The notes under the pieces were generated by a model. The model was not told where the DNA came from. It worked only from the letters and a program-made list of their open reading frames with translations, and did no database searches. From NCBI GenBank assembly GCA_025999335.1, contig AP024681.1, positions 322,565 to 386,564 of the forward strand: a stretch of 64,000 bases of DNA, read 5' to 3'. Positions 57,312 through 60,618 of the stretch are shown piece after piece; position 1 is the stretch's first letter, and every line of letters starts with the position of its first letter. Source of the stretch: Candidatus Parcubacteria bacterium. Its GTDB lineage: Bacteria > Patescibacteriota > Minisyncoccia > UBA6257 > HR35. A program made the position numbers and the translations under genes.

Positions 57312-57746
57312 ATGCAGCAAAATTATTTACAACAATTTTTATTTATAATAATGATTTTAATTATATTTTCGCCTATATTTATTAAAGCAGCAAGAGTTGA
57401 TTTAGCAAGCATTGTTGTTTGTTCAGCAACCCCTTGTACTTGGGGAGATTTTATAGCTACTTTGCAAAATGTTATAAAAGCAATTGTCGAAATATCTTTT
57501 TATTTAACTGTTTTATTTAGCGTTATTGGTTCTTTTATGATTATGTTTCACGGACCAAGGCCTGATTTTTATCAGAAAGGTAAAAGTTTTATTCAAATTT
57601 CGATTACTGGCTATATTATTTTATTATTTTCAGCATTGATTTTTGATACTATATTAGGCATTTTACAACCTCAATTTGTTAGTCAATATTTTTTTAAAAT
57701 TATAGAGATAACAAAAATTTTAAGTCTTAATAATTATTTTAATTAA
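57312..57746 (+). CDS. VirB2/TrbC-like (T4SS-type) pilin family protein 1
   Basis: 144 aa. Signal/TM, Cys pair (CSATPC), then two hydrophobic helices separated by a short basic loop. Member of a tandem array. Confidence 0.5.
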   Translation: MQQNYLQQFLFIIMILIIFSPIFIKAARVDLASIVVCSATPCTWGDFIATLQNVIKAIVEISFYLTVLFSVIGSFMIMFHGPRPDFYQKGKSFIQISITGYIILLFSALIFDTILGILQPQFVSQYFFKIIEITKILSLNNYFN

Positions 57747-57748
57747 TT

Positions 57749-58162
57749 ATGAAATATTTTTATTTTTTATTAATAAGTATGCTATTTGTTTTTAATTTTA
57801 CGCCTAATTCATTTATGATTCAAGCTCAAAGTGCTGCTTCTTATTCGCCGGTGATCTATTATAATTCTTTAAAATCAGCTATTTTAGGTTCTTTAAGATG
57901 CGGACAAGTTCCGACGCCAACATCAGCTTGGACGCAGTTAAAACAATGTTTACTTGATGCTGTGTCGTCTTTAAGAGGTATATCCTTGCTGTTTTTAGCT
58001 TTAGCAATTATTGGATCAGGTATTTACTTATTAACAACGCCATTGTTTGGTCTTAAAAATATAGCTTTGGCTTATAAAATTTTAACTTGGTCAATTATTG
58101 GCTTTATTATTATTTTAACCGCTGATATTATTGTTGGACAGTTAGACCTTCTTTTAAGATAA
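57749..58162 (+). CDS. VirB2/TrbC-like pilin family protein 2
   Basis: 137 aa with the same architecture. Cys pair in the mature N-terminal region. Confidence 0.5.
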   Translation: MKYFYFLLISMLFVFNFTPNSFMIQAQSAASYSPVIYYNSLKSAILGSLRCGQVPTPTSAWTQLKQCLLDAVSSLRGISLLFLALAIIGSGIYLLTTPLFGLKNIALAYKILTWSIIGFIIILTADIIVGQLDLLLR

Positions 58163-58165
58163 AAA

Positions 58166-58594
58166 ATGTTAGTTCGTAAAAAATTTTTATTTATTTATCT
58201 AATATTTATACTTATTATTCCAATATATAATTTTTATGTACTTTCAGGAAGCGATGAAACTGCAAAAGTAGAAATTAGTTTTGTTACTTACACAGCTGCT
58301 GTTTGTCCGCCTTCTATTTTGGGTATACCTAGTTCGCGAGCTTCTTGCACTTTTCCTTCAATTGTTGATATTATTGCTACTACTTCTAATTTTATTATTT
58401 CTGAGTTAGCTCCTTTAACTTTAGTTATTTTAATTATAATAGGCGGATTTTTATATATTTTAATGGTATTTCAACCATCTTTTCTTGAATTAGGGCATAA
58501 GTATATTCAATGGGGAATTTATGGCTATGTTATTTTACTTTTGATTTTTTCAATCTTAGTATTTATTCAAACCACTTTTACACCATCGCCATAA
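58166..58594 (+). CDS. VirB2/TrbC-like pilin family protein 3
   Basis: 142 aa with the same architecture (CPPS...SCTFPS). Confidence 0.5.
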   Translation: MLVRKKFLFIYLIFILIIPIYNFYVLSGSDETAKVEISFVTYTAAVCPPSILGIPSSRASCTFPSIVDIIATTSNFIISELAPLTLVILIIIGGFLYILMVFQPSFLELGHKYIQWGIYGYVILLLIFSILVFIQTTFTPSP

Positions 58595-58694
58595 AAATTT
58601 TTTTATAAAATGTGTTATAATTAAAATGGAAGTATAAAGCAAATAACACTGGTCGTTATTAAATAATTAATTTTTAAAAACTTCTCTTTTAAAA

Positions 58695-59126
58695 ATGACT
58701 TATCTTAGTCGTCAAAATAAAGCAAAAAAAATTATTTTCGTGTTATTTTTCTTAGGATTATTATCTTTAGCGACTTTCAAATTTGTTTATGCTCAGACTG
58801 GTGGTACTGGTGGCACAGGGGGTACGGCTACTGGTCCTTTTGATATAGTGCCGTCCGGTGTGCCTACCACTATATGTGGCGAGAGGGACAATCTTTTAGT
58901 ATGCGGTGGTAAATGGGCAACAACTATTTTAAGATATTTAATTTTCATTGCCGTAGCTTTTTCTGTAATAATGATTGCTTATGCTGGCGTAGAATATATA
59001 CTATTTGGTGGTGGAGACGGAGCTAAAAATGCTAAAAATAGAATTATATACGCTATTGTTGGATTAGTTATTGCTTTTATAGCTTTTGTGGCCGTTAGAA
59101 TGATAGTCAATACTCTTACTTCATAA
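58695..59126 (+). CDS. VirB2/TrbC-like pilin family protein 4 (Gly-Thr repeat after signal peptide)
   Basis: 143 aa. Signal peptide, QTGGTGGTGGTATGP, Cys pair (TICGERDNLLVCGG), then two TM helices. Confidence 0.55.
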   Translation: MTYLSRQNKAKKIIFVLFFLGLLSLATFKFVYAQTGGTGGTGGTATGPFDIVPSGVPTTICGERDNLLVCGGKWATTILRYLIFIAVAFSVIMIAYAGVEYILFGGGDGAKNAKNRIIYAIVGLVIAFIAFVAVRMIVNTLTS

Positions 59127-59256
59127 AATCCATAATTATTCATAAAAGATTTAGAGTATATAAGTTATTTAAAATTAAAAATTTATACCTTGATCTGAAG
59201 AAATTATGGTGAATTTTTAGTTATTTAAGGTTAAAGTTATATAAATACGTTAGTTT

Positions 59257-60342
59257 ATGAATTTTCTTAATAAAAAAAAATTCCATAAAATTTTACTCAC
59301 CAGCGTTTTAATATTTATGGTCTTATTTGTTGATTTGTTTAATGTTTTTTCTTTTGCAGGTTTGATTAATATATCTAGGGCAACTAGTCATGGAAGCAGT
59401 GGTAGCGGTGGTGTAGGAGTTGGTGGATCATTGCCAGACGTTATTCAAGTATTGCCTACGCCGCCTCTTTTAAATTGTCCTGCTTATCTTACAGACTCAA
59501 TGTGGGTTAATATTTTTGGAGAGAATAGATTTGGAGGTAGAGAAATTAATATATCGAATAGCGGTCAGTTTATGGTTTGTTTTCTTTTTATTGCAACTCA
59601 AGTTTTATCTTCTTTGGCTTGGATAGCCATTGTTTTTTCGGTTTTAGCTATAACTTATTATGGTATTTTGTATATTGTTAAACCGAGCACTTCTTCTAAT
59701 ACTACTAAAAACATTACTTGGGCTGTTTGGGGCTTAATTGTTTCTTTATCAGCATTTACTTTAGTACAGTTAATTCGTTGGAGCTTTTTTTCCTTTAATC
59801 CTAATTTAGACAATATAGCTAATTTATCTTTTTATTGGTTTATTAATAAGTTTCAATTTATAAATATTGCACAAGCTTATGTTGAAAGTGGTGTAGTTCA
59901 AAATAATAATTTATCCTTTGGTTATTTAGGAGAAAAATTAATCTCGGGTTTAGGTTTGCCTATGTTAGTGTCATTGTTAGCATTAACAAGTTTACCTGAA
60001 TTATTAGGGTTGCCTGACTGGATAGGCGAGCTTCATAATCTTCGTTTGAGTTTTTGTCCTGATTTGCCAAATGTTTTGTCTCCGGGTTCTATAGTTCCTC
60101 CTGATACTTGGACAGAATGCGCTTTTTCTTTTGTTTATATGCTTATATATTTATTATCTTGGTTGGCTTTGGTTTTATCAGTAATTTTTATAAGTTGGTT
60201 TGGCATTTTGTATATTATTCAACCATCAGAAGCTCAAAAAACGCATAGTCGCTTAAAATATGCTTTTATAGGTTTGATTGTCTCATTATCAGCTATTATG
60301 ATTATTAATTTAATATCAATGTTGTTTGTAGATTTATTCTAA
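59257..60342 (+). CDS. tandem double-module VirB2/TrbC-like pilin protein
   Basis: 361 aa. Two consecutive units, each Cys...Cys followed by two TM helices (NCPAYL...MVCFLFIATQVL... and SFCPDL...TECAFSFVYML...). Gly/Ser-rich after the signal peptide. Confidence 0.5.
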   Translation: MNFLNKKKFHKILLTSVLIFMVLFVDLFNVFSFAGLINISRATSHGSSGSGGVGVGGSLPDVIQVLPTPPLLNCPAYLTDSMWVNIFGENRFGGREINISNSGQFMVCFLFIATQVLSSLAWIAIVFSVLAITYYGILYIVKPSTSSNTTKNITWAVWGLIVSLSAFTLVQLIRWSFFSFNPNLDNIANLSFYWFINKFQFINIAQAYVESGVVQNNNLSFGYLGEKLISGLGLPMLVSLLALTSLPELLGLPDWIGELHNLRLSFCPDLPNVLSPGSIVPPDTWTECAFSFVYMLIYLLSWLALVLSVIFISWFGILYIIQPSEAQKTHSRLKYAFIGLIVSLSAIMIINLISMLFVDLF

Positions 60343-60360
60343 AGATTATTTTCTAATAAG

Positions 60361-60618
60361 ATGCCTCCTGGCCCAATTGATAACATAATTCATCCTACTT
60401 TAACTTTAGCGTTATCAAATACCATTAATTGGTTCTTTCAGTTTACTGTGTATATAGCTATTATTGTTTTAATTTATCTAGGTATTTTATATATTACTAA
60501 CAAAGAAGAAGGCATTAAAAAAACTCATAGTTGGTTGGGCTATTTAGCTATAGGTATTCTTATTGTTTTTTTATCGCGAATTTTAATCCAAGCAGTATAT
60601 TTGTTGTTAGTGGGATAA
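60361..60618 (+). CDS. short VirB2/TrbC-like pilin family protein 6
   Basis: 85 aa with two hydrophobic helices and KKTHSW, similar to KTHSRLKYAF in the preceding gene. Confidence 0.4.
   Translation: MPPGPIDNIIHPTLTLALSNTINWFFQFTVYIAIIVLIYLGILYITNKEEGIKKTHSWLGYLAIGILIVFLSRILIQAVYLLLVG

Follow-up and report, generated by a model that had tools for sequence, protein, structure and literature searches.

Ordered VirB2-like hairpin paralogues in a strain-variable operon of a Parcubacteria chromosome

What might a row of six small, sequence-divergent membrane protein genes do for a bacterium with a reduced genome? Such a row lies in a stretch of 64,000 nucleotides from Candidatus Parcubacteria bacterium (contig AP024681.1, positions 322,565 to 386,564; hereafter the window), exactly where a preliminary description of this DNA had placed six consecutive plus-strand genes. 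We refer to these genes as g1–g6 (Table 1). Read from its sequence, the locus is a chromosomal operon composed of a methyltransferase gene, a gene for a predicted membrane-anchored protein resembling sugar-type solute-binding proteins (SBPs) and the six array genes, which carry seven VirB2-like hairpin modules (M1–M7). We lean, with modest confidence, towards the view that the array encodes a VirB2-like, heteromeric fibre at the cell surface through which the host would be contacted, its assembly and function being inferred. The locus tags KatS3mg097_375-381, on a 680-kb contig of a metagenome-assembled genome (MAG), include the SBP-like gene as _375, g4 as _379 and g5 as _380.

The genes are tightly packed. 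Six nucleotides separate the SBP-like gene from g1, and the gaps between g1 and g6 are 2, 3, 100, 130 and 18 nt, those of 100 and 130 nt, located 5' of g4 and g5, being AT-rich. Judged from hydropathy and sequence, the products of g1–g5 start with a hydrophobic signal or transmembrane (TM) segment in which a small-x-small site could plausibly be cleaved. Their modules contain exactly one Cys pair apiece, the second Cys standing where helix 1 begins, and a short loop of net basic charge connects the two TM-like helices. This layout, which had been ascribed to all six proteins, holds for g1–g5 but not for g6, which has neither signal peptide nor Cys, as is the case in all eight of its orthologues examined (8/8). 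Each of the two modules of g5 has a Cys pair. They share 40% identity across 70 aa (E 8e-16) and are connected by a 108-aa linker that is predicted to be extracellular and contains a hydrophobic stretch at residues 228–252; the second module is the nearest relative of g6 in the array. Paralogue pairs within the array share 18–40% identity. As previously described, g4 contains a Gly-Thr repeat (58797–58825, period 9 x 3.2) and g5 is Gly/Ser-rich in one stretch. Orthologues of g1–g6 occur in the same order in at least six other lineages and the ratio of nonsynonymous to synonymous divergence (dN/dS) is below 1; by this sequence evidence, they are genuine genes rather than chance open reading frames (ORFs).

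Table 1. Features of the array locus and other window features discussed in the text
Feature	Position	Strand	Description	PF18895 bits (E)
g1 = M1	57312-57746	+	144 aa; signal peptide, Cys37/Cys42, TM hairpin, C-terminal tail	21.8 (2e-4)
g2 = M2	57749-58162	+	137 aa; signal peptide, Cys51/Cys67, TM hairpin	27.0 (5e-6)
g3 = M3	58166-58594	+	142 aa; signal peptide, Cys47/Cys61, TM hairpin	12.7 (0.14)
g4 = M4	58695-59126	+	143 aa; signal peptide, Gly-Thr repeat, Cys61/Cys70, TM hairpin	29.2 (1e-6)
g5 = M5+M6, single ORF	59257-60342	+	361 aa; Cys74/108, Cys267/288; hairpins aa 107-179, 287-359	35.0 (2e-8)
g6 = M7	60361-60618	+	85 aa; bare hairpin, without signal peptide, without Cys	20.9 (4e-4)
Strain-variable island	56,219-60,614		602 differing positions versus L003/L008 allele	
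MalE-type SBP-like gene, KatS3mg097_375	56145-57305	+	386 aa; one N-terminal TM segment, membrane-anchored	
Class I S-adenosylmethionine-dependent methyltransferase	55615-56148	+	173-177 aa; NCBIfam/Pfam matches	
tRNA-Leu(GAG)	60649-60733	+	marks the operon's downstream end	
PilB/GspE-type ATPase	7343-8989		467 bits, full length, to GspE/PilB versus 55 bits, partial, to VirB11	

The sequence relationships support assignment of the array to the VirB2/TrbC-like family of type IV secretion system (T4SS) pilins. Against Pfam gathering cut-offs of 26.6 bits for PF18895 (T4SS_pilin) and 27.9 bits for PF04956 (TrbC/VirB2), searches with profile hidden Markov models (HMMs), which had been proposed as a check, gave PF18895 scores of 12.7–35.0 bits across g1–g6, with g2, g4 and g5 passing the cut-off. 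PF18895 is the top or only family match of g1, g2, g4 and g5 (the last in two stretches), is sub-significant for g3 and comes second for g6, which gives the best TrbC match of the array (E 8e-5, 23.1 bits). g3, the weakest Pfam match, reaches 113 bits with a leave-one-out M3 profile and 80 bits with a local hairpin profile that includes g3. There are also weak NCBIfam matches to the 'pilin-like conjugal transfer protein' (Mbov_0395) of a Mycoplasma integrative and conjugative element. Among the 41 hairpin modules aligned from the array and its homologues, 40 match PF18895 (E < 0.01) and 13 match TrbC below threshold, the next family being DctQ with 6. Orthologues of M7 match PF18895 in 8/8 cases and TrbC, again sub-threshold, in 5/8. 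M7 was also considered as a VirB3 analogue, but VirB3 is matched by 0/8 of these orthologues, as opposed to 8/8 for T4SS_pilin. No match to N_methyl (PF07963), the class III prepilin signal, was obtained at E <= 10 in g1–g6, and the motif is missing from the sequences.

An AlphaFold2 model of the g4 hairpin, based on the 41-module alignment, consists of two long helices (residues 2–36 and 40–74; predicted local distance difference test score, pLDDT, 88.5). Hydropathy, loop charges and this model are consistent with a two-helix pilin core, the point that a topology prediction had been meant to settle. The array shows the canonical VirB2/TrbC arrangement, in which a leader precedes two helices that form a hairpin around a basic loop, except that g6 has no leader; the fold itself is generic. 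The PF18895 and TrbC matches, the AlphaFold hairpin and published arrays all agree with the earlier placement of these genes in the T4SS-type pilin family expanded in reduced-genome episymbionts.

Arrays of this kind have already been published, and the KatS3mg097 array is one of the 'VirB2-like pilin arrays' of Patescibacteria. A survey of 3,035 Patescibacteria genomes recorded VirB4 in 2,417 (about 80%) and VirB2-like pilins in 1,948 VirB4-positive assemblies, near virB4 in 1,135, as well as 441 arrays of 2–11 VirB2-like pilin genes in 383 assemblies, with a mean identity of 25% and a maximum of 54% (Quinonero-Coronel et al. 2025, PMC12102498). Pilins were accepted there by matches to PF18895 or PF04956 with an i-Evalue < 0.001 and > 50% HMM coverage. 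Such matches are found for g1 (model positions 8–70 of 71), g2, g4, g5 and, with either family, g6; g3 fails alone and belongs by its position-specific profile. The survey counted genes as tandem when at least two pilin genes were adjacent or had one non-pilin gene between them, and here six are adjacent. Our array resembles the published ones in its PF18895/PF04956 matches, tandem arrangement, low identity, chromosomal location and monoderm lineage, but differs in having no virB4 nearby and in being preceded by the conserved methyltransferase and SBP-like genes. The supplementary tables of PMC12102498 do not list the KatS3mg097 MAG, and the study makes no mention of pilin fusions, positional orthology or SBP linkage. 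What the present array adds is an architecture of seven paralogues in fixed order, together with gene fusions, linkage to an SBP-like gene and a strain-variable island.

Orthologous loci (L numbers) came from assemblies in Logan, ENA and NCBI, in part through a genome scan with M6 as bait. Loci of type A comprise the window, L003/L008, L011, L013, L014, L017 and the partial L015, and their gene order is constant: GyrA, methyltransferase, SBP-like gene, array. Type-A arrays have the seven modules M1–M7 in fixed order, and it is the packaging into genes that differs by lineage. M1 and M2 form a single ORF in L011, L013, L014 and L017 and two genes in the window; M5 and M6 form a single ORF in the window, L003, L011 and L014 and two genes in L013, L017 and L004. 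M7 is invariably the last and shortest gene (76–87 aa). In the cross-genome matrix of module bit scores, the maxima lie on the diagonal, i.e., modules score best with their own position, and leave-one-genome-out profiles assigned 34 of 35 modules from five lineages to their own position, the single miss being the window's fast-evolving M5 (a tie of 43 versus 44 bits). By these sequence relationships, M1–M7 are ancient, position-specific paralogues with 1:1 positional orthologues. The two units in g5 had been noted correctly as tandem hairpin modules, but not as an internal duplication: since M5 and M6 are separate genes in L013, L017 and L004, comparison of the sequences identifies g5 as a fusion or unsplit pair of old neighbours rather than a fresh duplication.

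In L004 (771–1834), a frameshift in the linker splits the M5+M6 gene into genes of 229 and 124 aa, reflecting either fission or an assembly error, and the second half-gene starts in the hydrophobic linker stretch equivalent to g5 residues 228–252. In the window, g5 and g6 share a reading frame (60340–60363; 11018–11044 in L003) with one stop codon between them, TAA here and TAG in L003. Read-through, which would give a three-module protein, was considered and rejected: L004 does not share the frame and M7 has a gene to itself in every locus; the arrangement is thus probably coincidental.

Type-B arrays (L016, L018, L019 and L020) lie between ComM/PGK (phosphoglycerate kinase) and aminotransferase/TsaD genes and have neither M1–M3 nor an SBP-like gene. 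They contain, with the type-A order kept, M4-, M5- and M6-like genes, then a gene for a 515–644-aa protein with an M6-like hairpin, and finally M7-like short genes. In that large protein the hairpin is flanked by large Cys-rich extracellular regions; the array of L019 (8263–12383), for instance, has seven hairpin genes, one of them encoding a protein of about 270 aa with an N-terminal hairpin. Multi-hairpin 'polypilins' recur in the family, as judged from predicted module content: the 49 representatives of g5-related clusters include 27 with two modules, four with three and one with six. The three-hairpin proteins are P0030, P0038, P0041 and P0045, and P0018 (552 aa) strings together six hairpins, amounting to 12 TM helices, with a single signal peptide and a single Cys pair.

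The operon differs sharply between strains. An alternative allele of the locus is present in L003 (Logan, SRR27730017) and L008 (NCBI GCA_041640215.1), which are 99.98% identical to each other. Between the window and these loci, the flanking FtsH, S1, GyrA, methyltransferase and phosphoglucomutase (PGM) genes are 100% identical at the protein and ~100% at the DNA level, whereas nucleotide identity within the island is 68–97%. Protein identity between the alleles is 94.6% for the SBP-like protein and 95.4, 90.6, 88.7, 66.7, 73.6 and 83.5% for g1–g6, respectively, and synonymous divergence (dS) is 0.08–0.86 in the island versus 0–0.02 outside. For M4 and M5, the two alleles differ from each other as much as either does from the separate species L004. 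Two further runs have Logan contigs with the window allele, and each allele was recovered in independent assemblies. Outside the island there are 11 synonymous gyrA changes and one 96-nt indel. The island thus consists of anciently diverged alleles on a nearly clonal background, a signature of recombinational replacement or balancing selection because dS is high inside the island and close to zero in the flanks. It is sharply bounded, and divergence within it is highest in the N-terminal heads: the hairpins are under purifying selection (dN/dS 0.33), the N-terminal heads have a dN/dS of 0.57, and the head of g4, with 1.07, is the most variable between strains. The earlier proposal of surface variation is therefore supported at the level of alleles, not at that of paralogues: the paralogue diversity on which it was founded is ancient, with 1:1 orthologues.

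Signal peptides are kept in both alleles, the shorter gene calls in L003 being gene-caller artefacts. P0003/L021 was tried as a third allele, but its tRNA-Leu flank is only 92% identical and it belongs to another species. The 11 gyrA differences from L003 fall in a patch (53703–54999) that may represent a separate small recombination tract. The 96-nt indel, in frame at ~62610, is the sole difference downstream of the island and affects a gene of the deoxyhypusine synthase family (62148–63134), which encodes 328 aa here versus 360 aa in L003/L008.

VirB2-type pilins are assembled by VirB4 and VirB6, not by PilB. VirB2 forms an N-out/C-out membrane pool from which VirB4/VirB6 extract and polymerise the subunits; in the fibre, the termini face outwards and the loop lines the lumen. 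Because of this established biology and the context of the family in other Patescibacteria, we propose that Sec or YidC would insert each precursor and signal peptidase I would cleave it. The product would be an N-out/C-out hairpin, its basic loop cytoplasmic and its small, disulfide-stapled head exposed. All seven paralogues, which are not redundant, would then be drawn out of the membrane to build one heteromeric surface fibre or stalk; the machinery responsible would most likely be a T4SS of the VirB4/VirB6 type whose genes lie in another part of the genome. Fused neighbours (M1+M2 and M5+M6) would occupy adjacent positions in the fibre, and the headless M7 might serve as its base or as an initiator. 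Contact with the host cell surface, and its specificity, could fall to the exposed heads, perhaps aided by the SBP-like lectin; recombination and frequency-dependent selection might diversify these heads from strain to strain.

Several observations weigh against such a fibre. In the window, the 10 kb upstream of it and ~7 kb downstream, there is no gene for VirB4, VirB6 (both of which had been singled out to be looked for), VirB8, VirB3/PrgI, TrsD or a coupling protein, so the virB3/virB4 adjacency that is canonical for VirB2/TrbC is not seen; T4SS genes in this group often lie near dnaA, which the window contains. g1, g3 and g6 miss the PF18895 cut-off, leaving 3/6 proteins above it, and none of g1–g6 attains the TrbC gathering score. 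The 41-module profile matched no solved pilin among all PDB sequences, and Foldseek comparison of the AlphaFold2 hairpin with the PDB returned generic helical hairpins, none with E < 1e-3; these searches single out no pilin because the hairpin is short and generic. No VirB2-type fibre has been observed in any Patescibacterium. The heteropolymer idea comes from orthology and the logic of the fusions only, and overall dN/dS is below 1, so that positive selection is not proven.

The SBP-like gene upstream bears on the strongest competing explanation. Its product has no Pfam match of its own, but homologues carry PF01547/PF13416 (SBP_bac_1/8). The family profile matches the sugar SBP 3uor in the PDB (E 6.6e-10), and an AlphaFold2 model (pLDDT 81.8) matches MalE-type sugar SBPs in Foldseek (E 1.8e-13, probability 1.0); a two-lobe sugar-SBP fold is thus indicated by both profile and model. 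Down to 37–41% identity between SBP-like proteins, linkage to the array is kept in syntenic type-A loci. The methyltransferase gene overlaps the SBP-like gene by 4 nt, and the succession of methyltransferase, SBP-like gene and array is syntenic in L003, L008, L011, L013, L014 and L017; the methyltransferase itself lies outside the strain-variable island and is 100% identical between strains. No permease or ATPase partner of the ATP-binding cassette (ABC) type was found for the SBP-like gene in the window or in the syntenic loci. Such an orphan SBP linked to the array, with no T4SS genes nearby, would suit a membrane-resident complex, in which the hairpins form a hetero-oligomeric ring, channel or anchor with the SBP-like protein, e.g., for T4SS-independent uptake of host sugars or glycoconjugates. 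Fused versions with 4, 6 or 12 TM helices fit polytopic membrane proteins better than extractable pilins, DctQ (the small subunit of tripartite ATP-independent periplasmic, TRAP, transporters) gives weak matches to 6/41 modules, and the generic hairpin also resembles membrane rotor and stator subunits. We nevertheless regard this explanation as rather unlikely, since the 40/41 T4SS_pilin and 13/41 TrbC matches far exceed those of any transporter family, members of the same family lie within T4SS clusters of other Patescibacteria and are essential together with them, type-B arrays have no SBP-like gene, and the divergence of the heads between strains is in line with an exposed structure.

In the epibiotic Southlakia epibionticum ML1, pilin genes standing in series within the T4SS cluster (SEML1_0006-0019) are essential by transposon sequencing (Wang et al. 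2023, PMC10633639). A 2025 review counts six pilins in that array and stresses how remarkable it would be for a monoderm T4SS to have a pilus (PMC12857230). Each of the two arrays is a row of six VirB2-like pilin genes in a Patescibacterium, divergent in sequence but alike in structure, and the order M4-M5-M6...M7 recurs in L018, a locus labelled Saccharibacteria. The S. epibionticum genes, however, lie among VirB3/4/6/8-like genes, while ours have no machinery nearby and are known from genes alone, in an uncultured Parcubacteria MAG. With the VirB2/TrbC/TraA proteins of PF04956, the array shares signal peptide, two-helix hairpin, basic cytoplasmic loop and N-out/C-out topology, along with weak but repeated HMM cross-matches (g6 at 8e-5; 13/41 modules). 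It differs from them in scoring below the gathering cut-off, in having a Cys pair that could form a disulfide where those proteins are cyclised or acetylated, and in the absence of a neighbouring virB3-virB4. It also has seven paralogues rather than a single major pilin, includes multi-hairpin fusions and belongs to a cell with a monoderm envelope. A more specific version of the fibre proposal envisages, instead of interchangeable pilins, an ordered seven-paralogue hetero-oligomer, fibre or conduit, its neighbouring subunits encoded by adjacent and at times fused genes and at least M4–M7 conserved across Patescibacteria classes. In this lineage it would be coupled to a dedicated sugar-binding receptor and uncoupled from the T4SS gene cluster, possibly even independent of VirB4, and replacement of head alleles would set host-strain specificity; we offer this composite as a speculation that is unlikely to hold as a whole.

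Paralogue diversity in Patescibacteria arrays has been read as possible antigenic variation (PMC12102498), which would make the locus a cassette for antigenic or host-range variation of the Bartonella Trw or Anaplasma type, with interchangeable major pilins used one or few at a time. Identities of just 18–40% between paralogues, heads that vary between strains and the AT-rich gaps before g4 and g5 would be in keeping with it. Improbable as we judge it, the idea conflicts with the 1:1 positional orthologues (34/35) retained across lineages in which the SBP-like proteins are only 37–41% identical, and with a fixed order and purifying selection on the hairpins. Moreover, repeated fusion of neighbours forces 1:1 co-expression, M7 is structurally distinct in every lineage, and neither recent duplicates nor pseudogene cassettes were seen. 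A scan of 55400–60900 for sigma-70 promoters and terminators gave counts equal to the shuffled expectation, i.e., at chance level, and is uninformative on internal promoters. The arrays of Bartonella Trw (trwL/virB2) and Anaplasma are likewise tandem, variable VirB2 paralogues thought to diversify the host-contact surface. Those are recent, lineage-specific amplifications beside a T4SS, whereas the present paralogues are ancient, of fixed order and with 1:1 orthologues, show no recent amplification and vary by allele rather than by copy.

The preliminary description had further suggested that the ATPase near the start of the window could power the fibre. Its scores identify it by sequence as a type IV pilus motor of the GspE/PilB type; it lies 48 kb from the array with no PilC, pilin or other pilus genes beside it, and the two are not linked. 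Assembly of the hairpin proteins by type IV pilus machinery is very improbable: although N_methyl pilin genes directly follow the array in L013 (11960–12469) and L015 (2014–2520), and PilB and PilC lie ~5 kb downstream of it in L017 (15087–18035), this association is missing in the window, L003/L008, L011 and L014, the array proteins have no class III prepilin signal, and proximity is weak evidence as type IV pilus genes are very common in these genomes. By analogy only, the array recalls the major and minor pilin sets of type IV pili, which also comprise non-redundant, position-specific, co-encoded paralogues of one fibre with disulfide-bonded exposed loops and hypervariable exposed parts. 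Fold and signal are unrelated, there is no N_methyl motif and the motor differs, so the likeness is one of logic, not homology. The Pam pilus, described in a preprint, was discarded as a related system since it has an unrelated Ig fold.

Returning to the heteromeric fibre, reviews call the role of the Patescibacteria T4SS "completely unknown", and the array adds testable constraints, as fusions of neighbours predict which subunits touch. If the non-redundant order, the variable heads and the travelling SBP are as proposed, they would argue against a simple antigenic-variation model and guide the choice of subunits to tag, deplete or co-fold in cultivable Saccharibacteria. For annotation, the 'hypothetical proteins' KatS3mg097_375-381 would become one host-interaction operon.

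The remainder of the window is origin-proximal chromosome, with genes for PGK, DnaA, DnaN, PBP1, RNase P RNA, PolA, aminoacyl-tRNA synthetases, ClpB, FtsH and GyrA. A 2,410-aa predicted surface protein (29647–36879, plus strand) contains CarboxypepD_reg repeats, fn3, lamin-tail and two peptidoglycan-binding domains, and its region has a GC content of 0.37–0.39 versus ~0.29 in the rest of the window. Next to it, on the minus strand, is a set of genes (37251–40189) resembling those for thiazole/oxazole-modified peptides (TOMMs): a nitroreductase-family protein (37251–37973), a YcaO cyclodehydratase (37978–39234) and a protein with a TOMM leader-peptide-binding or SagC-type domain (39362–40189). 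An Rfam match to 'Plastid-ycf2' at 20609–20682 (66.0 bits against a cut-off of 65.7) is exactly antisense to tRNA-Ile(TAT) and almost certainly spurious. Close to the array, the 3' end of the phosphoglucomutase ORF (60698–62110, minus strand) overlaps tRNA-Leu by 36 nt, so that its last ~12 codons are antisense tRNA.

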